Counted from the stretch's first letter, positions 13,402 to 43,729 are shown. The stretch: DNA of 64,000 bases from Anaerolineaceae bacterium (GCA_035388405.1 DAOOPV010000007.1:63-64062), one strand, 5' to 3'. Numbers and translations: made by a program. The notes: generated from the letters alone by a model not told the origin.

Positions 13402-13423
13402 ATTTGGGTCCTGTCTGTTTTTA

Positions 13424-14854: not shown

Positions 14855-14898
14855 AGTGTCACCGTGTTGTATTTGTAATTTTTTGACCCGTTTTTTTT

Positions 14899-14933
14899 AT
14901 CAGGCACGAATTTTTTGAGGATTCGTGCCTGAT
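14899..14933 (-). terminator. Strong stem-loop downstream of the ABC substrate-binding-protein gene (13-bp stem, no canonical U tract)
   Basis: atcaggcacgaat / tttttgagg / attcgtgcctgat, read directly. On the minus-strand RNA the hairpin is followed by AUAAAAAAAAC rather than U-rich sequence. It may be an mRNA-stabilising or attenuating hairpin rather than a classic terminator. Confidence 0.45.
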
Positions 14934-14959
14934 TGATCGAAAATCTCAGCAGAATCTGG

Positions 14960-16165: not shown

Positions 16166-16290
16166 TTCTTTCTCCTTCTGTAGTTGGTTCAAAGTTGTTA
16201 AAAACATCGACTGTCCATTGCTCAGTTTTCTTCTCTCTAATGACCTCCTTGGCAGGTAACAAAAAGGGTTCACTGGATTCTCGACTCTCT

Positions 16291-17373: not shown

Positions 17374-17385
17374 GTTCTCCTCGTT

Positions 17386-19221: not shown

Positions 19222-19338
19222 CTTGTCTCTCCTCTCAGTACAATTACTACCTTTACATATCTCTTGTGCATACTAGAACATTGAACCTCCAGGTGTAAAG
19301 ATTTTCCAGTACTTACATACTGTTTATCAGTAAAAGCG

Positions 19339-27270: not shown

Positions 27271-27299
27271 TTGACTTTTGGCCCAAGAGCCTGTAAACT
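27271..27299 (+). promoter_or_regulatory. Sigma70-like promoter candidate of the LacI-family operon (TTGACT-17 nt-TAAACT)
   Basis: ttgact at 27271-27276, a 17-nt spacer, and taaact at 27294-27299. The palindromic operator starts 11 nt downstream. Confidence 0.5.
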
Positions 27300-27309
27300 A
27301 TATTCATCA

Positions 27310-27325
27310 ATGCACACGTGTGCAT
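27310..27325. promoter_or_regulatory. 16-bp perfect palindrome ATGCACACGTGTGCAT, candidate LacI-family operator (copy 1)
   Basis: Read directly. It is self-complementary, lies between the -10 candidate and the regulator's RBS, and recurs at 34551-34565. Confidence 0.65.
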
Positions 27326-27338
27326 AAGGAGAAACGTA

Positions 27339-28364
27339 GTGGCAATCACCATCAAGGACATTGCAAAAAGGGCAGGAGTTTCTCACTCGACGGTCTCCCG
27401 TGCCTTGCGAGTAAATCGCCTTGTGTCCAGTGAAACTGCCCGGCGTATCCACGACATCGCCCAGGAAATGGGCTATCGACCCAGCGCAGTGGCGCGCAGT
27501 CTCAAAACCAACCGCACCCAGGTTCTGGGCGTGATTGTCAGCAGTATTTCCGATCCTTTTTTTGGCGAGATCCTCAATGGGATCGAAGCGAGCGCGCAGG
27601 CTGGCGGTTATAGCCTGTTTATTGCGGCTTCCCAGCATGATCCAATTAAAGAACGGCAAATCGTTCAGACGATGATGGAGCAGCGTACCGAAGGGGTAAT
27701 TATTTGCTCATCTTCCTTCAGCCCTGAACACGGACGCCAGCTGCTTTCCTATGGATTTCCAGTTGTGGTGGTCAACCACCAGGGCAGCGAAAGTTTTAAC
27801 TATTCTATTTACCATGATGATATCGACGGCAGCTCGCAAATCACCCGGCATCTGATTTCGCTGGGACACAAAAGAATTGCCTATCTTGGTAACTCCCAAT
27901 CCGGCAGGACCACACAGGACCGGTTGCGGGGTTTCCTGGACGCCATGGCAGAAGCTCACTTGGAAGTGCCAGAGAATTACGTCCATCACGTGGAGGGCGG
28001 TGAACCCCTCCTGGGCGCTGAAAGCGTCCGATACTTCGCAAGACTGACTCCGAGACCCACCGCGATCATTTGTTTTAACGACATGCTGGCGATTGGTGTG
28101 CTCAAAGGCTGTGAACAGTCCGGTTTACGGGTTCCAGAAGACATTTCGGTGACCGGTTTCGACAACATAACCTACTCAGCGTTTACAACGCCTTCTCTGA
28201 CCACTTTTGATCAGCCAAAATTTTCCATCGGACAGGAAGCTGCTCAACTTCTATTGGATTTGCTCCAAGCCGAGGATGGAATTATCCCGGACATGCCAAA
28301 TGTGAAAGTGCTAAAAGGGAAGCTGTTGGTCAGAGGATCAACCGGAATTCCTGGTGAGGTTTAA
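27339..28364 (+). CDS. LacI-family transcriptional regulator
   Basis: HTH TIKDIAKRAGVSHSTVSRAL plus a periplasmic-binding-protein-like core. The preferred start is GTG 27339, preceded by AAGGAG with a 7-nt spacer. The ORF-track start is 27318. Confidence 0.85.
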   Translation: MAITIKDIAKRAGVSHSTVSRALRVNRLVSSETARRIHDIAQEMGYRPSAVARSLKTNRTQVLGVIVSSISDPFFGEILNGIEASAQAGGYSLFIAASQHDPIKERQIVQTMMEQRTEGVIICSSSFSPEHGRQLLSYGFPVVVVNHQGSESFNYSIYHDDIDGSSQITRHLISLGHKRIAYLGNSQSGRTTQDRLRGFLDAMAEAHLEVPENYVHHVEGGEPLLGAESVRYFARLTPRPTAIICFNDMLAIGVLKGCEQSGLRVPEDISVTGFDNITYSAFTTPSLTTFDQPKFSIGQEAAQLLLDLLQAEDGIIPDMPNVKVLKGKLLVRGSTGIPGEV

Positions 28365-28371
28365 TCCATTT

Positions 28372-29886
28372 ATGAACAATCCCTTTACCCTCAAATCAGA
28401 TCGTGATCTCTCCCTAATCCCACAATCTTTCGTGAGTTATCGAGGGTTGGAATTGGGCTTGACTTGCGAAGAGGGAACCAGGCAGTTGGTAATATTGGCT
28501 GCTAATGTGGACCCCCGACTCAAGCCATTTGAAGGCAAGCGTGCGGATTTTGCAGGAAAGACGCTTGTAGAGGGACCGCTTTCGTCTGCCAATGCGGCAG
28601 CCTTGAGGGATCTGTTGCCTTGGCTTCGCCCGCAAGTCCTGGGCTTGAAGACCTCGGTTGGTATGGGAGATCGTTTGGGGCTGGCAACACCCGGACACGT
28701 TCGCGCCGTCCGTGCCTGCAACGGTAATGTCGCTCCGATTTTTGCGCAGCAATCCATCAGGGAGTTGGCGCGGACCGGTCGAACACCGCAACAGGTCATG
28801 GATGATGCCATGTGGGGTGTCTTCCAGGAAAACTGGCAGGATGGTTTTGGTGCGGATGCGGACCACCTGAAGACTGAAACCGACATTGATGTCTGCCTGG
28901 GTGCTGGCTTCACCTTTTTTACGATCGACCCGGGCGCGTTCGTGAACGATCGAGCCGATAACCTTGGCTTGGAAGATCTCAGGCTCCTGGCTGTGGACCT
29001 GCCTTCTGCCTTGAGAGAGTCCGAGAGCGATCTGTTGAACTGCTCGCGCACCATTCAAGGACTCAAAATTCATTTTTCTGAAGCAATTTTGCTCAAGGCA
29101 ATGGTGAAATACGGGCACGCCATTTGGCATGTGGTCAAAATGTATGAGCACTTGCGGGCTGCCAGCGCTGGTAAATCCTTTGAATTGGAAGTTTCTGTTG
29201 ATGAAACAAAATGTCCAACCAGTCACGCTGAACATTACTATTTCGCCCATGAACTGAAGCGAATGGGGGTGCAGTGGGTTAGCCTGGCGCCCCGTTTTGT
29301 GGGTGAATTTGAGAAGGGTGTCGATTACATTGGGGACCTCGCCGCATTTGACGCGGATATCACCGGGCATGCAGCCATCGCCAAAGAGATGGGACCTTAC
29401 AAGATCAGCCTCCATTCGGGTTCGGATAAATTCAGCATCTATCCGGCTGCCGCACAACGCACAAAGGGCTTGGTGCACCTGAAAACCGCCGGAACCAGCT
29501 ACCTTGAGGCTATTCGCACCATCGCGGAAATTGACCCTCACTTTTTCAAGGAAATCTACGAATTCTGCCTGGGTCGTTACGAACAGGATAAACTCAGCTA
29601 TCACGTTTCTGCCCGCCTGGACCGTGCGCCTGCTGCCAGCGAGACAGGATCGCCCAACGATTATTTGGATAATTTTGACGCGCGTGAGATCCTGCACGTC
29701 ACATTTGGATCGGTGCTCAAGGAGAAATACCCCGAAGGCACCAGGCGTTTCTATGACCGCTTGATCGCGTTACTTGATCAACACCCTGAGGTCTATGCCA
29801 GCAATCTTGAGCGGCACTTCAAACGACACTTGGAGCCATTCTGCCAAGCTGTTAAAACACAACGAACAAAAAGAAGCAACGGGTGA
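28372..29886 (+). CDS. uxaE: Tagaturonate/fructuronate epimerase (UxaE family)
   Basis: The blocks GDRLGLATPGHVRA, IFAQQSIRE, GFGADADHLK, EVSVDET, ISLHSGSDKFSIYP, HLKTAGTSYLEA and HVTFGSVLK match my memory of the Thermotoga UxaE family. An alternative GTG start lies at 28354. The context (SDR reductase next) fits. Confidence 0.65.
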   Translation: MNNPFTLKSDRDLSLIPQSFVSYRGLELGLTCEEGTRQLVILAANVDPRLKPFEGKRADFAGKTLVEGPLSSANAAALRDLLPWLRPQVLGLKTSVGMGDRLGLATPGHVRAVRACNGNVAPIFAQQSIRELARTGRTPQQVMDDAMWGVFQENWQDGFGADADHLKTETDIDVCLGAGFTFFTIDPGAFVNDRADNLGLEDLRLLAVDLPSALRESESDLLNCSRTIQGLKIHFSEAILLKAMVKYGHAIWHVVKMYEHLRAASAGKSFELEVSVDETKCPTSHAEHYYFAHELKRMGVQWVSLAPRFVGEFEKGVDYIGDLAAFDADITGHAAIAKEMGPYKISLHSGSDKFSIYPAAAQRTKGLVHLKTAGTSYLEAIRTIAEIDPHFFKEIYEFCLGRYEQDKLSYHVSARLDRAPAASETGSPNDYLDNFDAREILHVTFGSVLKEKYPEGTRRFYDRLIALLDQHPEVYASNLERHFKRHLEPFCQAVKTQRTKRSNG

Positions 29887-29887
29887 A

Positions 29888-30721
29888 ATGATGACCATGG
29901 ATATCAAACAAACTTACGACTTTTCAGACCTTTGCGCAGTGGTGACCGGAGGGGCGGGCGTCCTCTGCGCGGAAATGTGCCGTGCCCTGGCAAGCCTGGG
30001 TGCTAAAGTCGCCATACTGGATCTCAATCCGGCGAACTCGGAAAAACTCGCGAACGAGATTAGGGAAAGCGGTGGTACCGCATTGGGAATCGCTTGCAAC
30101 GTGCTAGATAAAGAGAGCGTCCAGGCAGCCTGCGACCTGGTGCTGGAATCTTTCAGCAAGGTGGATATCCTGATCAACGGTGCCGGCGGAAATAAAGCGC
30201 AGGCAACCACCAGCGCTGAGTTGCCCTTTTTTGATTTACCCCAGGACGCGTTGCGTTGGGTGTTTGAGCTGAACCTCCTGGGAACCATTCTGCCCTCCCA
30301 GGTGTTTGGCAAGGCGATGGTAAAGCAAGGACAGGGCAATATTTTGAACATTTCCTCGATGAATGCCTTCCGACCGCTCACACGCATTCCTGCTTACTCG
30401 GCAGCCAAGGCTGGGGTGAGCAACTTCACCCAGTGGCTGGCGGTGCACCTGGCGCAGGAATACTCCCCCAACATTCGCGTGAACGCGATCGCCCCGGGCT
30501 TCTTTGTTACCGAGCAAAATCGCTTCCTCCTGACTGACCAACAAACTGGTGAACTGACCCCTCGCGGCAAAACCATCATCGGGCACACCCCCATGAACCG
30601 TTTTGGTAAGCCGGAAGATCTGTTGGGTACGGTTTTGTGGTTGGTGTCGCCTGCTTCGGCCTTCGTTACTGGTGTGGTTGTACCGGTGGATGGCGGTTTT
30701 TCAGCTTTTAGTGGAGTGTAG
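29888..30721 (+). CDS. SDR-family oxidoreductase, fructuronate/mannonate oxidoreductase-like
   Basis: VTGGAGVLC (cofactor motif), the YSAAK catalytic dyad, NISS. It resembles the SDR-type D-mannonate oxidoreductases found beside uxaE. The ATG at 29888 comes 1 nt after the uxaE stop. Confidence 0.65.
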   Translation: MMTMDIKQTYDFSDLCAVVTGGAGVLCAEMCRALASLGAKVAILDLNPANSEKLANEIRESGGTALGIACNVLDKESVQAACDLVLESFSKVDILINGAGGNKAQATTSAELPFFDLPQDALRWVFELNLLGTILPSQVFGKAMVKQGQGNILNISSMNAFRPLTRIPAYSAAKAGVSNFTQWLAVHLAQEYSPNIRVNAIAPGFFVTEQNRFLLTDQQTGELTPRGKTIIGHTPMNRFGKPEDLLGTVLWLVSPASAFVTGVVVPVDGGFSAFSGV

Positions 30722-30725
30722 AGCA

Positions 30726-31979
30726 ATGACCATCGGTTTGGGTTTTCTAGATCAATACCTCGACGATCACGCGGTTGAGAGCATAGTGGGAGAAGCGCTT
30801 TCCGGCATGGCGTTGGAAGGCAAAAGGGTCTTGTTCCTGATCCCGGACGGCACGCGCAGCATGCCGATGCCGCTGATGTTCAATTTGTTTGAAAAGCATC
30901 TTTCCGGGCGGGTAGCCGCGCTGGATTACTTGGTGGCGCTTGGGACTCACCAACCTATGAGCGATGAACAACTGAGCCATCTGATTGGGCGCGATGTCGA
31001 AAATGGAAAAGCTGGTGATAGCCACGTTTTCAACCATAACTGGAAAACCCCCGAAACTTTCACGCAAATCGGAGTGATACCCTCTGATGAGATCGAACGC
31101 ATCTCGGACGGTCGCCTGGTGGAAGAGGTTCCTGTGAGGTTGAACAAGCTGATACTTGATTACGATCACCTTTTTGTTTGCGGACCTGTTTTCCCACATG
31201 AGGTTGTTGGATTTTCGGGTGGGAATAAATACTTTTTCCCGGGCGTAGCCGGCCAGGAAATTATCAACTTCACCCATTGGTTGGGAGCTTTGATCACTAG
31301 TTTTGAAATTATCGGTTCCGGTTACACACCAGTCCGGGCAGTGATTGACCGGGCGGCGTCTTTCATCCCAAAACCCGTGCACTGCTTCAGCCTCGTTGTA
31401 ACACATGAAGGGCTTGCGGGCATCTTCTTTGGAGAAGCCCAGGAAGCTTGGGAAGCAGCCGCGGCACTCTCTGCGCAGAAGCATATCGTGTACGTGGAAA
31501 AAGCCTTTGAGAAAGTCATCTCGATTATGCCTGAGCTTTATGACGACCTTTGGACGGCAGCCAAGGGCATGTACAAAATGGAACCGGTGATCGCCGACGG
31601 TGGTGAGGTCATCATTTACGCCCCGAACATCACCGAGGTCAGTTACACCCACGGAAAGTACCTGGATGAAATTGGCTATCACTGCCGCGATTACTTCACC
31701 AAGCAGTGGAGCAGGTTTGAGCACTATCCTCACGGCGTGATAGCCCACTCCACCCACTTGCGGGGAATGGGAACGTATGACGAAACAACCGGCGTTGAGC
31801 AGCTGCGCATCAAAGTCACCCTTGCCACTGGCATACCCAGGGAACGTTGTGAAAAGATTGGCTTGGGTTACCTCGACCCAGCCAGCTTTGATCCGCAGGA
31901 TTGGGTTGGCAAAGAGGAGCAAGGCATCCTGGTGGTGCCCCGGGCTGGCGAAATGCTTTATCGACTCAAGGTGAACTGA
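30726..31979 (+). CDS. LarA-family nickel-pincer-nucleotide-dependent 2-hydroxyacid racemase/epimerase homologue
   Basis: IPDGTRSMP, LGTHQP (equivalent of catalytic His108), FPHEVVGFSGGNKYFFPG (equivalents of His174 and cofactor-tethering Lys184 in L. plantarum LarA, from memory). The ATG at 30726 follows the SDR stop. Confidence 0.7.
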   Translation: MTIGLGFLDQYLDDHAVESIVGEALSGMALEGKRVLFLIPDGTRSMPMPLMFNLFEKHLSGRVAALDYLVALGTHQPMSDEQLSHLIGRDVENGKAGDSHVFNHNWKTPETFTQIGVIPSDEIERISDGRLVEEVPVRLNKLILDYDHLFVCGPVFPHEVVGFSGGNKYFFPGVAGQEIINFTHWLGALITSFEIIGSGYTPVRAVIDRAASFIPKPVHCFSLVVTHEGLAGIFFGEAQEAWEAAAALSAQKHIVYVEKAFEKVISIMPELYDDLWTAAKGMYKMEPVIADGGEVIIYAPNITEVSYTHGKYLDEIGYHCRDYFTKQWSRFEHYPHGVIAHSTHLRGMGTYDETTGVEQLRIKVTLATGIPRERCEKIGLGYLDPASFDPQDWVGKEEQGILVVPRAGEMLYRLKVN

Positions 31980-31999
31980 TCTTTAGCAAATAAGGAGAA

Positions 32000-33409
32000 A
32001 TGATGCAATACAAAATCGGACTTGTTGGTCTTGGGGTGATGGGGCGCAACCTGGCGCTCAATATTGAACGAAATGGTTTCCCTATTGCTGTCTGGAATCG
32101 AAACCCGCAAAGGATGCATGACTTCATCAGCGAGGAGGGGGAAGGTAAGGCTCTGCTCGGCGTGGAAAAACTGCCGGACCTGATGGCGGCGCTCGAAAAA
32201 CCTCGTCGGGTGATCCTGATGGTTCAGGCCGGCGCGGCGGTGGACGAAGTCATCGATCAGATCAAACCTTTGATGGATCCAGGAGACATCCTGATCGATT
32301 GCGGTAACACGTTTTTCACCGACACCGAACGCAGAAACAAAGCTTTGGAAGCAGAAGGTTTTCAATACATCGGGGCTGGGGTTTCTGGCGGCGAGGAAGG
32401 CGCAAAGTGGGGTCCTGCCATCATGCCAGGTGGAAATCGGCCGGCGTGGGAAGCTTTGAGTGAAATCTTCTACGCGATTGCTGCCAAGGCGGAGGATGGT
32501 CAACCCTGTGTCGAGTACATGGGTCCTGGCGGAGCAGGGCACTACGTAAAGATGGTGCACAATGGAATTGAATACGGCGACATGCAGCTTATCTCTGAAG
32601 CCTATGACCTTCTAAGCCGCGGTTTGGGATTGGGCGCGGATGAATTACACGCGATCTTCTCCCGCTGGAACGAGGGACTGCTTAAGTCCTACCTGATCGA
32701 GATCACAGCCGACATCTTCAAGACCATTGACCCGGACACTGGCTTACCGCTGGTGGACTTGATCCTGGACCAAGCCGGGCAAAAAGGCACCGGCAAGTGG
32801 ACCAGCCAAAACGCCCTCGACATCGGCGTTCCCGTGCCAACGATCAACGCTGCCTTGCAAGGACGCATCATATCCTCCCTCAAGGAAGAACGCGTTTATG
32901 CAGCGACCCAGCTGCCCTCGCCGGAACAGAAGTATGAAGGCGACGCGGCAGAACTGATCAACGCGATTGAGAACGCGCTTTACGCAAGTAAGGTCACTTC
33001 GTACGCGCAGGGGCTGGCGATGCTTCGCATGGCTTCGCTGGAATACAACTACGATCTTAACATCCGCGATGTCGCCAAGATTTGGCGGTCAGGCTGTATC
33101 ATCCGGGCGAGTTTGCTGGGCGACATCATGGCTGCCTACGAACGCGATCCTCAACTGGTCAACCTGATGCTGGATGAGGTCTTCAAGAGCGCCATATTGG
33201 AAAGGCTGGATGACTGGCGCAAGGTTGTCCAGATCGCTGTCGGGCTGGGAATACCAGTGCCCGCAATGAGTGGCGCGCTTTCTTACTTTGACGCGTATCG
33301 CAGTGAACACTTGCCTGCCAACCTGATCCAGGCGCAGCGTGATTACTTTGGGGCGCATACCTATCGGCGCATTGACAAAGACGGTGTTTTTCACACCCAA
33401 TGGGTGTAG
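32000..33409 (+). CDS. gnd: 6-phosphogluconate dehydrogenase, decarboxylating
   Basis: 469 aa. IGLVGLGVMGRNLALN is the Rossmann motif, followed by GAGHYVKMVHNGIEYGDMQLI and the C-terminal AQRDYFGAHTY. AAGGAG RBS. Confidence 0.9.
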   Translation: MMQYKIGLVGLGVMGRNLALNIERNGFPIAVWNRNPQRMHDFISEEGEGKALLGVEKLPDLMAALEKPRRVILMVQAGAAVDEVIDQIKPLMDPGDILIDCGNTFFTDTERRNKALEAEGFQYIGAGVSGGEEGAKWGPAIMPGGNRPAWEALSEIFYAIAAKAEDGQPCVEYMGPGGAGHYVKMVHNGIEYGDMQLISEAYDLLSRGLGLGADELHAIFSRWNEGLLKSYLIEITADIFKTIDPDTGLPLVDLILDQAGQKGTGKWTSQNALDIGVPVPTINAALQGRIISSLKEERVYAATQLPSPEQKYEGDAAELINAIENALYASKVTSYAQGLAMLRMASLEYNYDLNIRDVAKIWRSGCIIRASLLGDIMAAYERDPQLVNLMLDEVFKSAILERLDDWRKVVQIAVGLGIPVPAMSGALSYFDAYRSEHLPANLIQAQRDYFGAHTYRRIDKDGVFHTQWV

Positions 33410-33423
33410 AGAGGCGAGATTGC

Positions 33424-34512
33424 ATGACTGGAAACTATGGTTTGAACATTCCTGAAAGTAGAGCAATGGACTTCGTATCGCTGGGAGCATTAGTCCACCG
33501 GCTGGATCCAGGGGTTGTGCCTTTCCACAAAGCGACGGAGTGTAAGATCCACGTCAGCGGTGGTGAGTTCAACTGCGCCGCCAACCTGGCGGACTGCTTT
33601 GGCTTGCGGACTGGCATTGCGACTGCCATGGTGGACTATCCCATTGGCGACCTGATTGCCGAACGTGTGCGGGCGATGGGCGTTAAGCCGTTCTATCGCC
33701 ACTTCAAGCACAACGGCGTAAACGGACCCAACATGGCGACCGTTTACAGCGACCGCGGCTACGGCGTTCGCCCGCCGGTGGTTTTCTATAACCGCAGTCA
33801 CGAGGCTGCCGCCGAGTTGAAGCCAGGTGATTTTGACTGGCAGGCAATCTTTGGCGGAGGTGTACGCTGGTTTCATAGCGGGGGGATCTTCGCGGCGCTG
33901 TCTGAAACGACTGGTGAAGTGATCATTGAAGGTATGCGTGCTGCCAAAGCTGCGGGGGCTGTGGTTTCCTTTGACCTGAACTATCGCGCAAAGCTCTGGA
34001 ACATCTGGGGCGGGCAGGAAGCCGCGCAAGCCGTTTTGCGCAAAATTATGGAGAATGTGGACGTTTTGGTGGGCAATGAAGAGGATATGCAACTTGGTTT
34101 GGGAGTTCATGGACCCCAGGTTGCAGGAGCTTCCAAGCTGGATCCGGGCGCGTTCATCGGAATGATCGATGAGGTTGTGCGGATGTATCCCAATGTCAAG
34201 GTTGTTGCCACCACGCTGCGCGAGGTGCACTCAACCAACCGCCACTCCTGGGGTGCGGTTGCGTGGATCAATGGTAGGACTTATGTGGCACCCACATGCG
34301 AGTTGGATGTGTTTGACCGGGTGGGTGGGGGCGATGGGTTTGCTTCCGGGTTGTTCTATGGGCTGCTTTCCGGTCAATCGGAACAGGAAGCCGTCAATCT
34401 TGGTTGGGCACATGGGGCATTACTGACGACTTTCCCCGGCGATACCACCATGGCGACCCTGGAGCAGGTGAGGGCTTTTGCCAAAGGAGGTTCAGCACGC
34501 ATTCAACGTTAG
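33424..34512 (+). CDS. PfkB-family sugar-acid kinase (2-dehydro-3-deoxygluconokinase-like; exact substrate uncertain)
   Basis: Ribokinase-like fold with the C-terminal DRVGGGDGFASG anion-hole motif. The start is ATG 33424, preceded by GAGAGG. Confidence 0.65.
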   Translation: MTGNYGLNIPESRAMDFVSLGALVHRLDPGVVPFHKATECKIHVSGGEFNCAANLADCFGLRTGIATAMVDYPIGDLIAERVRAMGVKPFYRHFKHNGVNGPNMATVYSDRGYGVRPPVVFYNRSHEAAAELKPGDFDWQAIFGGGVRWFHSGGIFAALSETTGEVIIEGMRAAKAAGAVVSFDLNYRAKLWNIWGGQEAAQAVLRKIMENVDVLVGNEEDMQLGLGVHGPQVAGASKLDPGAFIGMIDEVVRMYPNVKVVATTLREVHSTNRHSWGAVAWINGRTYVAPTCELDVFDRVGGGDGFASGLFYGLLSGQSEQEAVNLGWAHGALLTTFPGDTTMATLEQVRAFAKGGSARIQR

Positions 34513-34593: not shown

Positions 34594-35637
34594 ATGGAAA
34601 CTATGAAAGCGCTTGTCTTTAAAGGTGTTGGAGATCTGGTTTTGGAGCAGGTACCGATCCCGCACGTGAAGGATCCGGATGATGTCGTAATAAAAATTTC
34701 AGCAGTCGGTATTTGCGGAAGTGACGTCAAAATTGTGGAGGGCAAGCATCATTTCAAGCCCAACACCATTCTTGGTCATGAATTTTGTGGTGAAGTTGTG
34801 GAAGTTGGAACCCATGTGCATCATGTGAAACTGGGCGACCGGGTTGCGGTGGATAACAACATTCGCTGCGGTTTCTGCGACTTCTGCCGCATGGGTCTCA
34901 CCAGCCAGTGCGTGGACATCAAAACCAGCGCGCTGGGAGTGATGCGCGACGGTGGCTACGCCGAATACTGCCTGGTCCCTGAAAAGCAGTGCTTTGTGCT
35001 GCCGGACGAAATTGACGACGTGCTTGGAACCCAGGTCGAAACCCTGGCAACCGTCGTCAACGGCATGAACACACTGCAAATGCTGCCTTACGACTACGTG
35101 ATGGTGATTGGCTTTGGTCCAATCGGCTACCTATTCTCGCAGTTCGCCAAGAACATTGCTGCCAAAGTGGCTGTTACCGAAATCGATCCTTTCCGCCGCG
35201 AACTCGCAAAGCGCTGCGGTCTGACGGTCTGGGACCCACAGGAAGTCGATGTGGTCGAAAAGATTACGGAGTTCACCTACGGCCGTAAAGCCGATATCGT
35301 GATTGAAGCCACCGGTAACGACCTGGCAACCGCTCTGAAGTGCGTCACCCCTGGCGGAAAAGTTCTGCCCTTCGGCATGGACTCCAGCATCACGACCACC
35401 GTGGTTCCGAACGAGATCACCCGTTGGGCTACCAAGATTCTCGGGCTTTACCTTGGTCAGAATACCATGGTTCCCTCCGTGCGCATCTTCCGTGAGAACC
35501 GCCTAGACATGGACAATTTCTTCACCAAGGTCATCAACCTGGAAGACGGCGTGGATGCCTTCAAGATGCTCGGTCTTGACGTGCCGACCCTTACACATGG
35601 ACCTAAGAGCGCGATGAAGATCGTCATGCGCCCATAA
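34594..35637 (+). CDS. Zinc-dependent medium-chain alcohol/polyol dehydrogenase
   Basis: GICGSDV, GHEFCGEVVEVG, and a structural-Zn Cys cluster CGFCDFCRMGLTSQC. Confidence 0.8.
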   Translation: METMKALVFKGVGDLVLEQVPIPHVKDPDDVVIKISAVGICGSDVKIVEGKHHFKPNTILGHEFCGEVVEVGTHVHHVKLGDRVAVDNNIRCGFCDFCRMGLTSQCVDIKTSALGVMRDGGYAEYCLVPEKQCFVLPDEIDDVLGTQVETLATVVNGMNTLQMLPYDYVMVIGFGPIGYLFSQFAKNIAAKVAVTEIDPFRRELAKRCGLTVWDPQEVDVVEKITEFTYGRKADIVIEATGNDLATALKCVTPGGKVLPFGMDSSITTTVVPNEITRWATKILGLYLGQNTMVPSVRIFRENRLDMDNFFTKVINLEDGVDAFKMLGLDVPTLTHGPKSAMKIVMRP

Positions 35638-35694: not shown

Positions 35695-36711
35695 ATGAAC
35701 CGAAAAATCAACTTTGCAGTAATCGGAACCGGGCGAATGGGCAGTGTGCACGTGGCGAATATCGTCAACAAGGTGCCAGAAGCCAATCTCGTTGCTGTGT
35801 GTGACATTCGCCTGGATGTCGCGCAGGCAGTCGCGGACCGATGGGGGATCACCAGGGTGGTGCAGGATTATCACGAATTGCTTGCGGATGAAACCATCGA
35901 AGCTGTCTTGATCGCCACCACCACCAGCACACATGCGGAAGTGATCAAGGATTGCGCCAAGGCGGGAAAACACATCTTTTGCGAGAAGCCAATCGCCCTG
36001 GATTTAGCACGCATAGATGAAGCGCTCGAGGCTGTCGAGCTTGCAGGAGTCAAACTGCAAGTAGGTTTCAACCGCCGCTTTGACAAAAACTTTCAGCGGG
36101 TAAAGGAAATCGTCCGTTCAGGCGAACTGGGAAGAACCTGCATGCTCAAGATCACCAACCGTGATCCTGAATTGCCCTCCAAGGAGTTTCTACGGGTTTC
36201 TGGTGGGCTGTTTCTTGATATGACCATCCACGACTTTGACATGGCTCAGTTCCAAATCGGTGAGATCACGGAGGTCTACGCCACCGGTTCAGTTCTGATC
36301 GACAGCGAGCTGGAAGAATTCGGAGATTTGGACACCGCGCTTATCACGTTGAGGTTTAAAGACGGCACCATCGGTTCGATAGATAACAGCCGCCAATCGG
36401 TTTATGGATACGACCAACGCCTGGAAGTTTTTTGCCTGGAGGGAACCGCCATGGCGGAAAATGAGAAAGAGAACATGGTGCTGAAAGGCAACCGCGAGGG
36501 CTTCCAGAGTTCGCGCGTGCCCAATTTCTTCATCCAACGTTACGCGCCCTGTTATGTTGATGAAGTTCGCCAGTTCCTGGTATCCGTGCGGGATGATTTG
36601 CCTACCTTGGTGACTGGGGAAGACGGTCGCAAAGCGGTAGTGATCGGCTACGCGGCATGGAAATCCTTCCACGAAAATCGCCCGGTGAAAATCAGCGAGA
36701 TCACCGGATGA
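35695..36711 (+). CDS. iolG: Gfo/Idh/MocA-family oxidoreductase, myo-inositol 2-dehydrogenase-like
   Basis: INFAVIGTGRMGSVH Rossmann motif and EKP motif (FCEKPIAL). The context with IolN/IolM/IolO-like genes fits. Confidence 0.6.
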   Translation: MNRKINFAVIGTGRMGSVHVANIVNKVPEANLVAVCDIRLDVAQAVADRWGITRVVQDYHELLADETIEAVLIATTTSTHAEVIKDCAKAGKHIFCEKPIALDLARIDEALEAVELAGVKLQVGFNRRFDKNFQRVKEIVRSGELGRTCMLKITNRDPELPSKEFLRVSGGLFLDMTIHDFDMAQFQIGEITEVYATGSVLIDSELEEFGDLDTALITLRFKDGTIGSIDNSRQSVYGYDQRLEVFCLEGTAMAENEKENMVLKGNREGFQSSRVPNFFIQRYAPCYVDEVRQFLVSVRDDLPTLVTGEDGRKAVVIGYAAWKSFHENRPVKISEITG

Positions 36712-36747: not shown

Positions 36748-37872
36748 ATGTCAGAAAAATTAGTACCTGAAGGTTATCTGGCCTCCAACCAACCAGATCT
36801 GTTTTTTGAGGATAATGCCGTCGGGCGGCTGAAGAAAGAAGTTTGGGAAGCCAGCGACGAGGAGATTGATGCCATTTTGGCAGATTACGGTGTTCCTTCA
36901 CCGGTGGAATGGGGAAAGCCTGGCTCTTACATTCAGACTACCACCCGCTGGCAGGTGGAAGAAAACCGTAAGAAGAACGACATCGTGTTCATCCCCGTCG
37001 GCTGCACTGAATTGCACGGTCAACACCTGCCAAGCGCGGCAGACACGCTCTACGTCAGCGCGATCTGCGAAGGTGTACGGCGCTTTACCGCCAAGCGCGG
37101 CGCGCCTGTAAATCTTGCTCTTCCTCCGTTGAACTACGGTGGTCATCCCTATCACCACCTGGGCATGCCCGGTACGGTCATCGTTCGCGAACACGTTGTG
37201 CGCGAAATGATGATCGATGTCATGCTGGGTTTGTGGAACGATGGTTTCCGCAAGCAGCTGATCGTCAACAATCATGGGCAGCTTTGGATGCTTGAATCGG
37301 CTGTACAAGAATTCCAGAAGCGTTATCAACTTCCAGGTATTTTTAGGGTGATTGACTGGCACCGTGGCGTACGCGAATTCTTCCGCCCAACAAATCGCGG
37401 TGGAGAAATGAGCACCAACTTCGTGCATGCCGATGAGTCCGAAACCTCCCTCAGTTTGCTGCTGCATCCTGAAATGGTGGACATGAACTACGCCGTGGAT
37501 ACCGAAGGCAAGAGCTACCTGCCTGAAGGTCACTATGACAAATCTGTGGATCCATTTGGACGCCCGAGCCGCTGGTCTGAAGGCGAAGGTCACTTCGCAA
37601 TCGAAATCGCCGCCACTCCTGAGGGCGTGGTTGGTAAGGCGAAGTCAGGCACTGCCCACAAGGGCAAACGCCCCATGGCTGCCATCCTGAAATACCTCAC
37701 TCTCTGGCATGATGATGTGCTTGAGGCTTTCCCAGCCGGCAAAGTGCCGCCCGTGGAAGAAGTGACACTGCGTACAGAAAAAGACATGGAACCCTACCTG
37801 CGCGAGCCTTTGAGCGAAGGATGGAAGCCTGTTTATGGAATCCCCCGCATTGGACAGGGAACGGAAGTTTAA
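36748..37872 (+). CDS. iolN: Creatininase-superfamily hydrolase, 3-dehydro-scyllo-inosose hydrolase (IolN)-like
   Basis: IVFIPVGCTELHGQHLPSAADT and HADESETS are creatininase-family metal-site blocks. The gene sits between iolG-like and iolM-like genes, as in the Thermotoga-type inositol cluster (from memory). Confidence 0.55.
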   Translation: MSEKLVPEGYLASNQPDLFFEDNAVGRLKKEVWEASDEEIDAILADYGVPSPVEWGKPGSYIQTTTRWQVEENRKKNDIVFIPVGCTELHGQHLPSAADTLYVSAICEGVRRFTAKRGAPVNLALPPLNYGGHPYHHLGMPGTVIVREHVVREMMIDVMLGLWNDGFRKQLIVNNHGQLWMLESAVQEFQKRYQLPGIFRVIDWHRGVREFFRPTNRGGEMSTNFVHADESETSLSLLLHPEMVDMNYAVDTEGKSYLPEGHYDKSVDPFGRPSRWSEGEGHFAIEIAATPEGVVGKAKSGTAHKGKRPMAAILKYLTLWHDDVLEAFPAGKVPPVEEVTLRTEKDMEPYLREPLSEGWKPVYGIPRIGQGTEV

Positions 37873-37902: not shown

Positions 37903-39096
37903 ATGAACGGAAAAATGGAAGGCGTTACCCTCGTCGCGGATTGGGACCCCAAACCCGGTTTTAAACTCGGCGCGAAAGATATTGAAGGTCGTCAGACCTA
38001 TTTGGGAAGTCAGGTTTGGCGCAATCCCCGCCTTGAGATCCGGGAATTTGACATCCCGACTCCTGGTGATGACGAAGTACTGATCGAAGTCAAGGCTTGC
38101 GGCATCTGCGGTTCGGATGTGCATATGGCCCAGGCTGACAAAGATGGTTACATCTTTTATCCAGGTTTGACCGGTTTCCCCAGCATTTTAGGGCACGAGC
38201 TCTCCGGTGTGGTGGTTGACGCTGGCAAGAAGGCGTTCGACAAGCGCACAAACAAGCCCTTCAAGGGCGGGGAAGCAGTGACAACTGAAGAAATGCTGTG
38301 GTGCGCCCAGTGCAAGCCCTGCGCGGACGGATGGCCCAATCATTGCGAGCGTTTGGATGAGATTGGTTTCAACGTCAATGGCGCGTTCACCAAGTACATC
38401 GTGGTGCCTTCACGGACTATCTGGAGCCTGGAACCGCTGCGCAAGAATTACGCCGACAAAGACCTGTTTGTGGCAGGCAGCTTGGTGGAACCGACCTGTG
38501 TGGCCTACAACGCGGTGATCGAACGCGGTGGCGGCATCCGACCTGGAGACCGTGTGGTGGTTTTGGGCGGTGGACCAGTTGGTCTGGCAGCCTGCGCCAT
38601 CCTCAAACGTGCCGGCGCATCCCAGGTGATCATCTCCGAAACCCAGGAAGACAGGGCGCAAATGGCTCTGAAATTAGGCGCGGACTATCATGTGAACCCG
38701 CTGAAGGAAGATTTCGCGGATCGTGTTTTGGAGATCACGGGTGGAATGGGAGCTGACCTGTTTATGGAAGCAACCGGTTTACCTGAGGTGGTCTATCCTG
38801 GAATTGAGCGTGTGGTTTGGGAAGGCCGAACATTGAACAGCCGCATCGTCGTCACCGCCCGGGCAGAAGCAAAGATGCCAGTGGCTGGTGAGGTGCTGCA
38901 GGTTCGCCGGGCTCAAATCATCGGCGCCCAGGGTCACTCCGGGCATGGCACCTTCCCGCGGGTGATCGAATGCATGGCCACTGGAATGGACATGACCACG
39001 ATCAGCACCAAGAAGGTCACCCTCCACGAGGTTCCTGAGAATATTATCCGCCTCCAGACCGACCGGTCTGAGTGCAAGATTACCTACGTAGCATAA
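37903..39096 (+). CDS. iolM: Zinc-dependent dehydrogenase, scyllo-inosose 3-dehydrogenase (IolM)-like
   Basis: CGICGSDVHM and GHELSGVV, with an extended N-terminus ending VWRNPRLEIREFDIP. Assigned from context. Confidence 0.55.
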   Translation: MNGKMEGVTLVADWDPKPGFKLGAKDIEGRQTYLGSQVWRNPRLEIREFDIPTPGDDEVLIEVKACGICGSDVHMAQADKDGYIFYPGLTGFPSILGHELSGVVVDAGKKAFDKRTNKPFKGGEAVTTEEMLWCAQCKPCADGWPNHCERLDEIGFNVNGAFTKYIVVPSRTIWSLEPLRKNYADKDLFVAGSLVEPTCVAYNAVIERGGGIRPGDRVVVLGGGPVGLAACAILKRAGASQVIISETQEDRAQMALKLGADYHVNPLKEDFADRVLEITGGMGADLFMEATGLPEVVYPGIERVVWEGRTLNSRIVVTARAEAKMPVAGEVLQVRRAQIIGAQGHSGHGTFPRVIECMATGMDMTTISTKKVTLHEVPENIIRLQTDRSECKITYVA

Positions 39097-39138: not shown

Positions 39139-39154
39139 GAACTGGAGTGATTTG

Positions 39155-40000
39155 ATGAAATTATCAGTAGTGCTTTCCACCCAACAAACCCAGTTTCAGG
39201 CGGCTTCTTTTTCCGGCTCCCTGGCAAAAAATATCGCCGACATTGCCGCATTGGGATACGACGGGGTTGAACTCGCCATCCGTGACCCAAAATTGGTGGA
39301 TGTGGATGCGCTGGAGGCTCTCACTCGGGAACATGGCTTGCGCGTTCCGGCGATTGGCACCGGTCAGGCGTGGAATGAGGAGAGACTCTCTTTCACGGAT
39401 CCCGATGAGTCGGTTCGCAGGGCTGCAATTGAGCGCGTAAAGGCGCATGTGCCGGTTGCCGCGCGTTTTAATGCCGTAATTATTATTGGATTACTACGAG
39501 GAATTATCAAACCCGGCGTTACGCAGCAACAAGGCATGGCTTGGGTTTGCGAAGCCCTGCAGGAATGCAGTCAGGCTGCCAAACCCCTTGGCGTCAGGCT
39601 CGCGCTGGAACCCATCAACCGCTACGAAACGACTCTGGTTAATTCTGTAGCAGAAGGCATGGCTCTGATTGACCGGGTTGGCGCGGAAAACTTTGGGCTG
39701 CTGCTGGACACTTTCCACATGAATATCGAAGAACCGGACATCCTCGAAAGCATCAGCACTTGCGGTGACTGGATCTTCCAATTCCATGTTGCCGACTCGA
39801 ACCGCTGGTATCCTGGGGCGGGGCATTTGGATTTCTCCGATATTCTTACAAGACTACATTCGACCGGTTACAAAGGGTTTGTTTCGGGGGAATTTATGCC
39901 CCTGCCAGATCCTCTCACAGCCGCTCGTGAAAACATCGCCCACTTGCGTGGGATTCTTTCCGATCCGGGACTTGGTTATAACCCCGGAACACACTTGTAG
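39155..40000 (+). CDS. iolO: Xylose-isomerase-like TIM-barrel epimerase, 5-keto-L-gluconate epimerase (IolO)-like
   Basis: LALEPINRYE, LLDTFHMNIEE, HVADSNR and SGEF are the TIM-barrel isomerase/epimerase metal-ligand pattern. ATG 39155 follows GGAG. Confidence 0.55.
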   Translation: MKLSVVLSTQQTQFQAASFSGSLAKNIADIAALGYDGVELAIRDPKLVDVDALEALTREHGLRVPAIGTGQAWNEERLSFTDPDESVRRAAIERVKAHVPVAARFNAVIIIGLLRGIIKPGVTQQQGMAWVCEALQECSQAAKPLGVRLALEPINRYETTLVNSVAEGMALIDRVGAENFGLLLDTFHMNIEEPDILESISTCGDWIFQFHVADSNRWYPGAGHLDFSDILTRLHSTGYKGFVSGEFMPLPDPLTAARENIAHLRGILSDPGLGYNPGTHL

Positions 40001-40030: not shown

Positions 40031-41677
40031 ATGCACGAGATCTATTCGAAAACCGCGCCTGAGGTGGACATCTCTCAAGTGAAACACATTGAGGGATTTG
40101 AGACCATCCAGGCCGAGTATTCTGCATATCTCAGTGATGAATCCAAATTATCTGCCAAGCCATTCGACTACCTGTTCTTCCCGAAGACTGAGGTTGAACT
40201 TGCCGCGGTAGTGAAGTTTCTGAACCAGCAAAAAGTTCCTTTTACTGTTGCTGGTGCCCGCACTGGTCTGGTTGGGGGTTGCGTCCCGCAGGAGGGAGCC
40301 CTGATCTCACTCGAGTATCTGGATAAAATCCTCGATGTCTACCGGGACGAAACATCTGGCGAGTGGAGAATTAAAGCGCAGACAAGCGTCAGTCTCAAGA
40401 ACCTCGACAGCATGTTGAGGGTCAAACAGATACCCACGCTTGAACAAAGTTCGGATGAAGCGATTCGCAGGCACTACTCCGAATTCAGGGAGGATCCTGA
40501 CCAATACTTTTACCCTCCTGACCCGACTGAAATGAGCGCCTCTTTGGGCGGTTCCGTGGTCACGAACGCATCCGGCGCGAGAACCTATCGCTTTGGTCCA
40601 ACGCGCGCGTGGGTTCGGGGGATGCGCGTGTTTTTAGCAAATGGGGAATACCTGGATATTCCCAGGGGGAAATACTTTTCTTCACCGGGAGGACAATTCA
40701 TTGTCTATAATTCCAAGGGCGGTGCCACTCCTATCACTGTTCCGGATTACCCGCAACCTCGCACGAAAAGCACCACTGGTTTTTACGCTGCCCCGCAGAT
40801 GGACCTGATTGACCTGTTCATTGGCTCGGAAGGCGTGTTGGGAATTGTTACCAGCGTTGATGTTGCGCTACTCCGGCGCGAAGACAAAGTCTCGATCATC
40901 CAGTTTATGGATTCTGACGAACAGGCGGTCACTTTGGCAGACGCGTTGCGGTCTGAAGGACGCATTCAATTGGACTTTCTCGAGTTTTACTCAGGCAATG
41001 CCCTGGATTTGCTCCGGCGCTTGCAGCGCGAAGAACCCTCCACGGTTGGAATGCCACCGATCCCGGAAGACGCGCAGGCTGCCTTGTTTATCGAGATGAG
41101 TTTTGACCCTCACCAGGAAGATCTTGACTTCTCCATCCTCGAAGCTGTGATCAATAGCTGCGGTGGCAGCCTTGAGCGATCGTGGGCGGGTTACGAAAGC
41201 CGCGAATTGGATCGTTTTAAGGTCTTCCGGCACATGGTCCCGGAGACAATTAATGGGATCATTGCTGAAAGAAAGAAGCAATATCCCGGCATTCACAAAC
41301 TGGGCACGGACATGGCAGTTCCCGACGGACACATGCGCGAGATGTGGGATTTGTATCGATCGCGCTGCGAAGAACTGCAGCTGGAGTGGTGCGCCTTTGG
41401 GCACATCGGCAACAATCACATCCACGTCAATATCCTGCCCCGGAACCTGGAGGAACTGGAAAAAGGGATGCAGCTTTATGAAATATTCGCGCAAAGGGCT
41501 GTTGAACTGGGCGGTTCGGTCTCGGCGGAGCACGGTATCGGGAAGATCAAAGCTAAATTTCTGAAATACATGTTCACATCGGAGCAAATTGGTCAGATGC
41601 AGCGCGTCAAAAAAGCCCTGGATCCACAAGGTTTGTTGAATCCCAACGACATTTTTTCTGTCGAGGTGACCGCATGA
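40031..41677 (+). CDS. FAD-binding (PCMH-type, GlcD/D-lactate-dehydrogenase-like) oxidoreductase
   Basis: 548 aa. The FAD-binding block is VAGARTGLVGG and the C-terminus has GGSVSAEHGIGKIK. Its stop overlaps the etfB start (ATGA at 41674-41677). Confidence 0.75.
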   Translation: MHEIYSKTAPEVDISQVKHIEGFETIQAEYSAYLSDESKLSAKPFDYLFFPKTEVELAAVVKFLNQQKVPFTVAGARTGLVGGCVPQEGALISLEYLDKILDVYRDETSGEWRIKAQTSVSLKNLDSMLRVKQIPTLEQSSDEAIRRHYSEFREDPDQYFYPPDPTEMSASLGGSVVTNASGARTYRFGPTRAWVRGMRVFLANGEYLDIPRGKYFSSPGGQFIVYNSKGGATPITVPDYPQPRTKSTTGFYAAPQMDLIDLFIGSEGVLGIVTSVDVALLRREDKVSIIQFMDSDEQAVTLADALRSEGRIQLDFLEFYSGNALDLLRRLQREEPSTVGMPPIPEDAQAALFIEMSFDPHQEDLDFSILEAVINSCGGSLERSWAGYESRELDRFKVFRHMVPETINGIIAERKKQYPGIHKLGTDMAVPDGHMREMWDLYRSRCEELQLEWCAFGHIGNNHIHVNILPRNLEELEKGMQLYEIFAQRAVELGGSVSAEHGIGKIKAKFLKYMFTSEQIGQMQRVKKALDPQGLLNPNDIFSVEVTA

Positions 41678-42474
41678 AGATCGTTGTGTGTGTAAAGCAA
41701 GTCCCCGAAGTTACCAACGTCCAGGTGGACCCGAAAACCGGCACTCTGATCCGCGAGGGTGTGAAGTCCATTTTGAACCCATTCTGCGAGTATGCGCTCG
41801 ATCACGCAGTTCGGATTAAGAATTCCGTGCCCGATGTCTCGATTACGGTAGTCACAATGGGTCCTCCGCAGGCAAAAGACGTCCTGATCAGGAGCCTCGA
41901 GTTAGGCGCGGATGAGGGCATCTTGATCACGGACCGTAAATTTGCCGGGGCAGATACCTGGGCTACCTCACTCACCCTGGCAGAAGCGATCAGGACTGTG
42001 GTTCCAGATTACGAACTGGTGCTGGTGGGCAAGCAGGCTATCGATGGTGACACCGCCCAGGTTGGTCCGGAAATCGCTGAGATACTCGGTTTGCCGCAGA
42101 TCACCTACGGAGTGGAAGTTGCACTCACGAGTACCCGAAGGCAAGTGAGAGTAACGCAGGAAGTTGAAAAAGGCTACGAGGTTATAGAAGCCAGTTTGCC
42201 AGCTTTGGTTACCTGCAGCAAGGGTGAGGTCGTAAGGCGCGCGCCGTCGTTTAAGGATGTCATCAATGCCCGGAATAAACGAATCAGGGTCGTGAGCGCA
42301 AATGATCTGCACCTGCCAGAAGAACAGTTGGGCTTGCAAGGCTCGTACACGCAGGTCGTGAAGGTTTTCCCACCGCCAGCGAAGAAGTCGAACCTGCTGC
42401 TGCAAAACCTGGAAGCAGCGGACGCCGCGAAGGAAATATTTGGGTTTTTGAAAGAAAAACGGTTTGTTGAGTGA
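41674..42474 (+). CDS. etfB: Electron transfer flavoprotein, beta subunit
   Basis: The classic N-terminus MKIVVCVKQVPE and GKQAIDGDTAQVGP. Confidence 0.9.
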   Translation: MKIVVCVKQVPEVTNVQVDPKTGTLIREGVKSILNPFCEYALDHAVRIKNSVPDVSITVVTMGPPQAKDVLIRSLELGADEGILITDRKFAGADTWATSLTLAEAIRTVVPDYELVLVGKQAIDGDTAQVGPEIAEILGLPQITYGVEVALTSTRRQVRVTQEVEKGYEVIEASLPALVTCSKGEVVRRAPSFKDVINARNKRIRVVSANDLHLPEEQLGLQGSYTQVVKVFPPPAKKSNLLLQNLEAADAAKEIFGFLKEKRFVE

Positions 42475-42526
42475 TCGCAATGGGAACGAGCAAACAGACT
42501 ACTGATAGGAATGGACGCAAGCGATT

Positions 42527-43729
42527 ATGTTGAACATTGACCACGAAAAATGTACCCGCTGCAAGGTGTGTATTCGGAATTGTCCTTTCGGGGCATTGAG
42601 CCTTGTGGGAGGTTCTCTGCATGTTAATGAGCTTTGCACCCTATGCGGTGCTTGTGTGAATGTCTGCCGCTTCGATGCCCTGAGCATTGAACGAAAAAAG
42701 GCCTCCCCGGAAGAATTAGCGCGCTACAAGGGCGTATTCGTCTGGGCTGAACAGGATGAAGAAACCTCGCCCCGCAAGCCGCGAAAAGTCGTGCTGGAAT
42801 TACTGGGAAAAGGCCGGGAATTGGCTGATAAGCTCGGGGAGGAACTGGTTGCCGTCGTATTGGCGGGTCCTGGTGAGGTGGATACTGAGGTTTACGGAGA
42901 GAATGGCGCGGACAAGGTGATTGTCTGCCGGCATGAGTTGTTGGATACGTACTCCACGGATGGTTTCACCAACGTCATGTGCGCCGTGATCACCAGCAAA
43001 AAGCCGGCGGTGGTCCTCTATGGAGCCACACCCCACGGACGGGACTTTGCGCCGCGGGTGGCAGCCCGTCTTCACCTGGGGTTGACGGCGGACTGTACCG
43101 GGCTTGAGATCAACGCCGACGGGCAGCTGGTTCAGACCCGCCCGGCATTTGGCGGGAATATCATGGCATCCATTATCACGCCCTTCAACCGTCCACAAAC
43201 TTCTACAGTCCGTCCAAATGTTTTCCCTGTTCCTGGCAAATATATCGGCTCATCGATAGTGGAGGAAATTTTCCCGGTCACGCTCAACCGTGCCGCAATT
43301 CGCACCCGGGTGGTGGAAAGGCGCTACCTGGACAAGGAAAGCGGTGTAAGCATCGAAGACGCGCGCGTGATCGTCGCGGGCGGCAGGGGTTGCCAGAAGG
43401 CTGCGAACCTAGAACTCCTGCAGGAGCTGGCGCAAAAATTGGGAGGCGTGATGGCTGGCTCGCGCGCCATCGTGGAGCAGGGTTGGATCCCGCACACCCG
43501 CCAGGTGGGGCAGTCTGGCACGACGGTTGGCCCGGAATTGTACATTGCGGCGGGCATCAGCGGCGCAATCCAACATGTGGTTGGAATGAGCTCATCCAAG
43601 ACGGTCATCGCGATCAACAAAGACCCCGAAGCTGCAATTTTTAAGACTGCTGATTTGGGTGTCGTTGGAGATGCGGTCGAGATTATCCCGCTTCTTGCTG
43701 CAATGATAGAGGAGAAAGCGTCCTCGTAA
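42527..43729 (+). CDS. etfA: Electron transfer flavoprotein alpha subunit with an N-terminal 2x[4Fe-4S] ferredoxin domain
   Basis: CTRCKVCIRNCP and CTLCGACVNVCR are the cluster motifs. An EtfA core follows, ending PELYIAAGISGAIQH. Confidence 0.85.
   Translation: MLNIDHEKCTRCKVCIRNCPFGALSLVGGSLHVNELCTLCGACVNVCRFDALSIERKKASPEELARYKGVFVWAEQDEETSPRKPRKVVLELLGKGRELADKLGEELVAVVLAGPGEVDTEVYGENGADKVIVCRHELLDTYSTDGFTNVMCAVITSKKPAVVLYGATPHGRDFAPRVAARLHLGLTADCTGLEINADGQLVQTRPAFGGNIMASIITPFNRPQTSTVRPNVFPVPGKYIGSSIVEEIFPVTLNRAAIRTRVVERRYLDKESGVSIEDARVIVAGGRGCQKAANLELLQELAQKLGGVMAGSRAIVEQGWIPHTRQVGQSGTTVGPELYIAAGISGAIQHVVGMSSSKTVIAINKDPEAAIFKTADLGVVGDAVEIIPLLAAMIEEKASS

Follow-up and report, generated by a model that had tools for sequence, protein, structure and literature searches.

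How might a bacterium in which mannonate dehydratase is not found bring D-mannonate into central metabolism, and what does a homologue of the lactate racemase LarA do where the genes for synthesis of its cofactor are not found? Both questions are raised by a 64,000-nucleotide stretch of DNA from an Anaerolineaceae bacterium (GCA_035388405.1, DAOOPV010000007.1:63-64062; the whole stretch is called the window, and positions are counted from its first letter). Between 28372 and 34512 it encodes a tagaturonate/fructuronate epimerase (UxaE), a short-chain dehydrogenase/reductase (SDR), a LarA homologue (LarAH), 6-phosphogluconate dehydrogenase (Gnd) and a kinase of the PfkB family. An earlier note, made from the sequence of the window, had proposed that these five genes form an operon in which LarAH converts mannonate to gluconate for the pentose phosphate pathway. 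We consider it probable that these genes make up the lower half of a single long operon, in an uncultured bacterium of sludge or digesters, for the catabolism of myo-inositol to ribulose-5-phosphate, and that LarAH is a GntE-type epimerase, most likely dependent on the nickel-pincer nucleotide (NPN), with the cofactor coming from outside the cell or by an unknown route.

Family placement and residues of the LarA homologue

In a search of solved structures, residues 20-415 of LarAH matched 4NAR, the structure of GntE2 from Thermotoga maritima, with 228.6 bits (E 1.2e-66). The lactate racemase structures gave 31-38 bits and the malate racemase Mar2 gave 28.5 bits. GntE2 epimerises D-mannonate to D-gluconate and requires NPN (Desguin et al. 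2020, PMC7583248). A tree made by a quick method placed LarAH in a clade with 100% support, with members from Chloroflexota, Acidobacteriota and a small number of further phyla, which was nested in the GntE-like assemblage and apart from the MAR-type and LarA-type outgroups. The Thermotogota protein that served as a proxy for GntE2 (571 bits to 4NAR) fell on a different sub-branch of this tree, which does not settle the order of the GntE sub-branches. LarAH thus groups with GntE2, and the clustering with lactate or malate racemases that the earlier note had set against its own proposal was not seen. Judged by sequence, LarAH belongs to the GntE branch and not to the lactate or malate racemases. 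The best NCBIfam model for LarAH was that of the group 18 putative hexonate epimerases (NF052594, 186.1 bits); membership of group 18 was rejected, as the equivalog cut-off is 500 bits.

Alignment to the Lactobacillus plantarum LarA structure (5HUQ) placed D41, R44, H75, H158, K168, H184 and K280 of LarAH at D72, R75, H108, H174, K184, H200 and K298 of LarA. The catalytic histidines (LarA His108 and His174) are therefore present as H75 and H158, and the NPN-binding residues (LarA Arg75, Lys184 and His200) as R44, K168 and H184. The equivalent of the nickel ligand His200 sits in the sequence FTHW, and the motifs LGTHQP and PHEVVGFSGGNK in the LarAH translation align to His108, His174 and Lys184. 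The retention of both catalytic histidines and the cofactor lysine, which had been read from these motifs, is borne out by this alignment.

The specificity residues of GntE have been published as E, V, A and H (PMC11770544), at the positions of LarA F175, F176, W358 and T359. In LarAH these are E159, V160, A340 and H341, the first two being placed by direct alignment to LarA and the last two only via the 4NAR sequence alignment. W276 of LarAH corresponds to the tryptophan that marks groups 18-20, at the position of LarA Y294. All thirteen catalytic, NPN-binding and specificity positions are invariant across 80 LarAH orthologues.

The ratio of non-synonymous to synonymous substitution rates (dN/dS) was computed among seven close relatives, all of which are without LarB, LarC and LarE (LarBCE), the proteins of cofactor synthesis. 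The values for LarAH and for the four other genes are given in Table 1. From these ratios, LarAH is judged to be under purifying selection and functional in hosts without larBCE.

Two related sequences depart from the usual gene. The LarAH orthologue of one relative (G099:C383:2091-3338) has four in-frame stops and is likely to be a pseudogene. A protein of 2030 residues (P0265) has an internal GntE-like LarA domain at residues 1105-1505, 43% identical to LarAH, and may be a multidomain fusion.

The gene cluster and a predicted route from inositol

Genes were called from the open reading frame listing and from family scans with Pfam and NCBIfam profiles. All five genes of the earlier note lie at the positions that it gave, on the plus strand and with the expected family matches, but the frame of 28372-34512 proved too narrow for the operon: a LacI-family regulator adjoins it on the 5′ side, and a zinc-dependent alcohol dehydrogenase (Zn-ADH), IolG, IolN, IolM, IolO, an oxidase linked to flavin adenine dinucleotide (FAD), EtfB and EtfA follow on the 3′ side. 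Judged from gene spacing only, the co-directional cluster extends from 27318 (LacI) to 43729 (EtfA), with intergenic gaps of at most 82 bases. A weak promoter-like site is present at 27271-27299, upstream of the LacI gene, where no inverted repeat that might form a palindromic operator was found. Terminator-like sites in the cluster were no commoner than in shuffled sequences, and none was prominent between genes.

Table 1. Genes of the cluster, their family matches (cut-offs in brackets), the number of LarAH loci in which each is a neighbour, and dN/dS among close relatives
Gene product	Position	Strand	Family match and remarks	Neighbour in loci	dN/dS
LacI-family regulator	27318..28364	+	PF00356, PF13377, PF00532; opens the cluster, before UxaE	33/80	
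UxaE, tagaturonate/fructuronate epimerase	28372..29886	+	PF16257, 484 bits; start Met at 28372	40/80	0.09-0.17
SDR, fructuronate reductase / D-mannonate oxidoreductase (UxaD/UxuB-like)	29888..30721	+	NF006132, 388.6 bits (281); directly upstream of LarAH	67/80	0.04-0.10
LarAH, GntE-type LarA homologue, predicted D-mannonate/D-gluconate 2-epimerase	30726..31979	+	PF09861, 77.7 bits; 4NAR, 228.6 bits		0.06-0.08
Gnd, decarboxylating 6-phosphogluconate dehydrogenase	32000..33409	+	NF006765, 689.5 bits (413); TIGR00873, 676.9 bits	49/80	0.03-0.04
KdgK-like PfkB kinase, putative gluconate kinase	33424..34512	+	PF00294, 51.8 bits; after Gnd	44/80	0.03-0.08
Zn-ADH	34594..35637	+	PF08240, PF00107; best NCBIfam model IolM, 183 bits (450)	30/80	
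IolG, inositol 2-dehydrogenase	35695..36711	+	TIGR04380, 424.3 bits (355)	30/80	
IolN, 3-dehydro-scyllo-inosose hydrolase	36748..37872	+	NF041098, 309.7 bits (245)	28/80	
IolM, scyllo-inosose 3-dehydrogenase	37903..39096	+	NF041097, 515.8 bits (450)	26/80	
IolO, 5-keto-L-gluconate epimerase (gives D-tagaturonate)	39152..40000	+	NF041099, 341.6 bits (300)	18/80	
FAD-linked oxidase (GlcD-like), EtfB, EtfA with ferredoxin domain	40031..43729	+	co-directional with the cluster		

At 80 loci that carry LarAH orthologues of 65-94% identity, the neighbouring genes were identified by tblastn searches in which the proteins of the window were the queries (Table 1). The SDR-LarAH pair is the constant core of these loci, as it is in T. 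maritima, and the complete order LacI-UxaE-SDR-LarAH-Gnd-PfkB-ZnADH-IolG-IolN-IolM-IolO was found repeatedly across genera of the Anaerolineae. Even at rearranged loci the GlcD-like FAD oxidase, EtfB and EtfA adjoin IolO-IolM-IolN on the other strand (L030, and L107 of genome G015 at 13202-20000). These three proteins may be part of the inositol module, where they might balance redox or oxidise a hydroxy acid, rather than a separate lactate dehydrogenase operon. In 30 loci the Zn-ADH lies after the kinase and before IolG; it is below every equivalog cut-off.

Each step of the route, including the substrate of the kinase and the order of epimerisation and phosphorylation, is predicted from gene identities, residue conservation, synteny, purifying selection and genome searches in which no alternative route was found. 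All four models of the Thermotoga-type inositol pathway (IolG, IolM, IolN and IolO) exceed their cut-offs within this one cluster. That pathway ends in D-tagaturonate, the substrate of UxaE (PMC12632266, PMC3750489), with IolO acting as a 5-keto-L-gluconate 4-epimerase that yields tagaturonate (PMC12632266). As the same operon holds these genes, the tagaturonate most likely comes from myo-inositol. IolG, IolM and IolN would oxidise myo-inositol and open the ring to give 5-keto-L-gluconate, which IolO would convert to D-tagaturonate. UxaE would then form D-fructuronate, and the SDR would reduce this to D-mannonate. Inversion at C2 by LarAH would give D-gluconate, from which the KdgK-like PfkB kinase would make 6-phosphogluconate and Gnd would release ribulose-5-phosphate and CO2. 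The part of this sequence that had been proposed before, from tagaturonate through fructuronate, mannonate, gluconate and 6-phosphogluconate to ribulose-5-phosphate, is supported by the grouping with GntE2, the GntE specificity residues, the synteny and the lack of alternatives found.

Many studies of activated sludge, digesters, manure and biosolids have yielded metagenomes that contain the stretch. Two activated-sludge RNA libraries contain contigs identical to the start of UxaE, the 3′ end of larAH (31461-32002), Zn-ADH, IolG, IolN and IolM; these libraries were seen as contigs only, so that gaps in cover are uninformative and DNA carry-over is possible. They give a weak hint that the operon is expressed in activated sludge.

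Two features of the other loci were noted. Between genera of the Anaerolineae (L030-L100) the identity is 83-94% for IolN and IolM, whereas it is only 47-78% for LarAH, UxaE, Gnd and LacI of the same loci, which points to unusually strong constraint on these two genes or to their recent spread. The UxaE matches in L023 and L033 contain a TGA codon.

Cofactor supply, kinase substrate and alternative readings

Several observations weigh against the route through a GntE-type LarAH. LarAH is below the cut-off of the sole curated hexonate-epimerase model (186 against 500 bits), it is only ∼38% identical to a GntE2-like representative, and the mapping of A340 and H341 to LarA W358 and T359 depends on the alignment to 4NAR alone. 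The closest characterised relative of the kinase is a 2-keto-3-deoxygluconate (KDG) kinase and not a gluconate kinase, and its homologues are annotated as KdgK in databases. All characterised GntE enzymes and all tested LarA homologues needed NPN (PMC7583248), yet none of LarB, LarC and LarE was found in the host assembly (2.37 Mb in 115 contigs, 94% complete) using hidden Markov models, with T. maritima as a positive control. A tblastn search of the same genome, for which the three Lar proteins of a relative were the queries, gave just a weak PP-loop match. Searches of G015, which is a genome of the same family in a single contig, is rated 99% complete and has a LarAH orthologue with 75% identity, likewise found none of the three proteins.

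The lack of larBCE in the window, as first reported, thus extends to the genome-wide search. The earlier note had named the absence of these genes from the genome as refuting its proposal; they were not found, but we do not take the proposal to be refuted, since strong purifying selection acts on the orthologues in larBCE-less genomes and every cofactor residue is intact in them. Across 50 genomes with LarAH orthologues, the identical 18 have LarB, LarC and LarE together and the other 32 have none of them. All 11 close relatives are among the 32, as is a record titled as a Terriglobia chromosome (L036/G134). Such an all-or-none pattern is unlike that of random gaps and argues against an assembly gap. 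In the tree, rows from genomes with LarBCE are intermixed with rows from genomes without.

A base rate was obtained by hand cross-tabulation of 301 Chloroflexota genomes that are at least 90% complete, 143 with a Lar_N protein and 165 with LarC. LarC was present in 126 of the 143 genomes carrying Lar_N (88%), compared with 39 of the 158 without it (25%). At 36%, the rate of LarBCE among carriers of LarAH orthologues is an outlier against the 88% of LarA-family carriers.

Given its complete set of NPN-binding and catalytic residues, LarAH most likely needs NPN as GntE2 does. With LarB, LarC and LarE not found in the lineage, the cofactor or a late precursor, on the supply of which activity in vivo would depend, must then come from outside the cell or by an unknown route. 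The simplest reading is that NPN binding by LarAH persists and that the host takes up NPN, or a late precursor of it, from its surroundings; an unknown NPN biosynthetic route or NPN-independent catalysis is less likely. Activation of apo-LarA homologues in vitro by added NPN has been reported (PMC7583248). We tentatively suggest that this GntE-type clade has been kept by bacteria unable to make NPN, which would take it or a late precursor from other members of their communities; this would make the hosts NPN auxotrophs and NPN a cofactor that is exchanged. By analogy, the apo-glucose dehydrogenase retained by Escherichia coli requires pyrroloquinoline quinone from outside. Our literature search found no paper linking the nickel-pincer cofactor with salvage, scavenging or cross-feeding; papers on lar genes (mBio 2024, JBC 2024, Nat Chem 2026) treat larBCE without larA and not the reverse.

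It is unlikely that LarAH in larBCE-less hosts is not an NPN enzyme at all, and that it instead epimerises its substrate without NPN (e.g. by means of the two histidines and a simple metal) or serves some other function. This would fit the lack of any of LarB, LarC and LarE in 32 of the 50 carriers of a gene that is clearly under selection, and also a LarBCE rate that is close to the 25% of genomes without a LarA homologue and far from 88%. However, the nickel-ligand histidine, the tethering lysine and the arginine are invariant in 80/80 orthologues regardless of LarBCE, which is hard to explain without NPN, and the requirement for NPN extends to every LarA homologue tested (PMC7583248).

G015 encodes three LarA homologues without LarB, LarC or LarE: besides the GntE-type protein, there is a malate racemase of the LarAH5 type, which exceeds its cut-off (517 against 462 bits), and a LarA-like protein, which does not (428 against 460 bits). 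The two additional homologues are at C1:1778113-1778715 and 1807096-1807698 (L105:8093-9358 and L106:8112-9347). The model for LarB detects PurE as well, as it did in all 14 control genomes, but it matched nothing at E 0.001 in the host genome or in G015. PurE may thus be missing from both, which would suggest purine auxotrophy.

An order in which the PfkB kinase phosphorylates D-mannonate and LarAH epimerises 6-phospho-D-mannonate to 6-phosphogluconate is quite improbable. The kinase is not a canonical gluconokinase, the gene order LarAH, Gnd, kinase does not set the order of reactions, and the sequence data do not tell the two orders apart. Nevertheless, GntE2, GntE1 and LarAH15 use unphosphorylated D-mannonate (PMC7583248, PMC11770544), and the specificity residues of LarAH are identical to theirs. 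In addition, many Acidobacteriota loci have the SDR-LarAH pair without the kinase. Epimerisation of free D-mannonate, followed by phosphorylation of D-gluconate, is thus the preferred order.

This order calls for a gluconate kinase. Searches of the whole host assembly found no UxuA, no Eda-type 2-keto-3-deoxy-6-phosphogluconate (KDPG) aldolase, no glucose-6-phosphate dehydrogenase (Zwf) and no match to the SKI-type gluconokinase (TIGR01313). The three FGGY kinases of the genome are GlpK, XylB and one that matches no equivalog, and no FGGY protein is near the cut-off of the FGGY gluconokinase TIGR01314. The statement that mannonate dehydratase and KDPG aldolase are lacking, originally made for the window, therefore holds there and was matched by the negative genome-wide search for UxuA and an Eda-type aldolase. 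As UxuA, an Eda-type aldolase, Zwf and a canonical GntK were all not found, we infer that the KdgK-like PfkB kinase is a gluconate kinase that has replaced GntK without being orthologous to it. The genome has one copy each of Gnd and the kinase; with a single Gnd and no Zwf found, this operon is the sole visible source of 6-phosphogluconate for Gnd. An FGGY kinase of 551 residues (G000:C11:25030-25773; L104:700-2352), under every equivalog cut-off and scoring 247.6 against 380 bits for XylB, is the one further candidate for a sugar-acid kinase that the genome offers.

That the enzyme is instead a true KDG kinase, with an unrecognised dehydratase making KDG from mannonate or gluconate and Gnd being an unrelated housekeeping enzyme, is highly improbable. 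Its best matches are indeed KDG kinases: the best solved relative is the T. maritima KDG kinase (2AFB, 185 bits), and the aldolase-kinase fusion model NF041633 gave 253 bits over its kinase half. All the same, it falls under every KdgK equivalog cut-off (NF041332, 131.6/440 bits; NF040938, 82.9/400 bits; NF052444, 34.3/400 bits). A KDG kinase would be without partners, since neither UxuA nor Eda was found in the genome (UxaA was not searched for), and Gnd, which adjoins the kinase in 44 loci, would have no other source of 6-phosphogluconate with Zwf not found.

Least probable of all is that there is no cofactor puzzle because LarBCE escaped detection, being too divergent, in an unassembled region or on a separate replicon: the host genome is 94% complete in 115 contigs and the carriers are mostly metagenome-assembled genomes, but the three genes are jointly present or absent in the same genomes (18 with, 32 without), none was found in G015, the Terriglobia chromosome or any of the 11 close relatives, and tblastn with the proteins of a relative was negative.

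Comparison with known systems

The mannonate-to-gluconate route is not new, being that of the published UxaE-UxaD-GntE-GntK-Gnd route of T. maritima (PMC3750489; PMC7583248). Mannonate probably enters the pentose phosphate pathway by this means, a hypothesis credited in the account of PMC7583248 to Rodionova et al. 2012. The locus described here extends the route to two groups that abound in digesters, sludge and soils, the Anaerolineae and the Acidobacteriota, and suggests fermentation of inositol, and possibly of hexuronates, without a branch of the Entner-Doudoroff type; the pathway itself adds little. The kinase, at present annotated as a KDG kinase, would be a case of non-orthologous displacement in which a KdgK-type PfkB enzyme apparently replaces gluconokinase. 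The part worth following is that the cofactor pathway was repeatedly not found in genomes that keep LarAH. LarA-family enzymes are assumed to depend on LarB, LarC and LarE, and here a whole orthologous group with all its cofactor residues conserved occurs in genomes without the three. Exchange of NPN, unknown biosynthesis or NPN-independent catalysis would each, if true, alter the genome-based prediction of NPN enzymes.

The closest known system is the T. maritima cluster gnd-uxaR-uxaE-uxaD-gntE-gntK with GntE2 (LarAH20), part of the UxaR-controlled operon aldH-pelB-gnd-uxaRED-gntEK (PMC3750489). It has the same enzyme set (UxaE, SDR, epimerase, kinase and Gnd), which leads into the pentose phosphate pathway; in both systems the SDR directly precedes the epimerase, and the catalytic, NPN-binding and specificity residues of GntE2 are the same as those of LarAH. 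The two systems differ in the regulator, which is of the LacI type here and the GntR type (UxaR) in T. maritima, and in the kinase, which is a KdgK-like PfkB protein here and GntK there. The latter is presumably of the FGGY type. They differ also in the epimerase, LarAH forming a clade of its own at the modest identity to GntE2-like proteins noted above, in the cluster partners, which are inositol genes here and pectin genes in T. maritima, and in LarB, LarC and LarE, which T. maritima has and which were not found in the host genome.

The inositol pathway of T. maritima (Rodionova et al. 2013, as described in PMC12632266 and PMC3750489) uses the same four enzymes, IolG-IolM-IolN-IolO, and its product feeds UxaE. 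By gene spacing, the inositol genes and the genes from UxaE to Gnd form one co-directional cluster here, whereas they belong to separate IolR and UxaR regulons in T. maritima; the Zn-ADH and the FAD-oxidase/Etf trio are additions to the T. maritima pathway.

Among other epimerases, LarAH shares the E-V loop, the tryptophan at the position of LarA Y294 and the A-H pair with GntE1/LarAH19 of Corynebacterium glutamicum, LarAH15 of Phytophthora nicotianae and LarAH group 18, and a hexonate substrate is predicted; it is not itself a member of group 18 (NF052594; 186 bits, cut-off 500). The kinase has the same fold and long KdgK-type architecture as T. maritima KdgK (2AFB) and other PfkB KDG kinases, which are its best sequence match. 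It differs from KdgK in being always beside Gnd and the epimerase, in having no KDG-producing or KDPG-cleaving partner found in the genome, and in scoring below the KdgK equivalog cut-offs. The cluster is thus a variant of a known mechanism, joined to inositol catabolism, with another kinase and regulator and an epimerase clade of its own.

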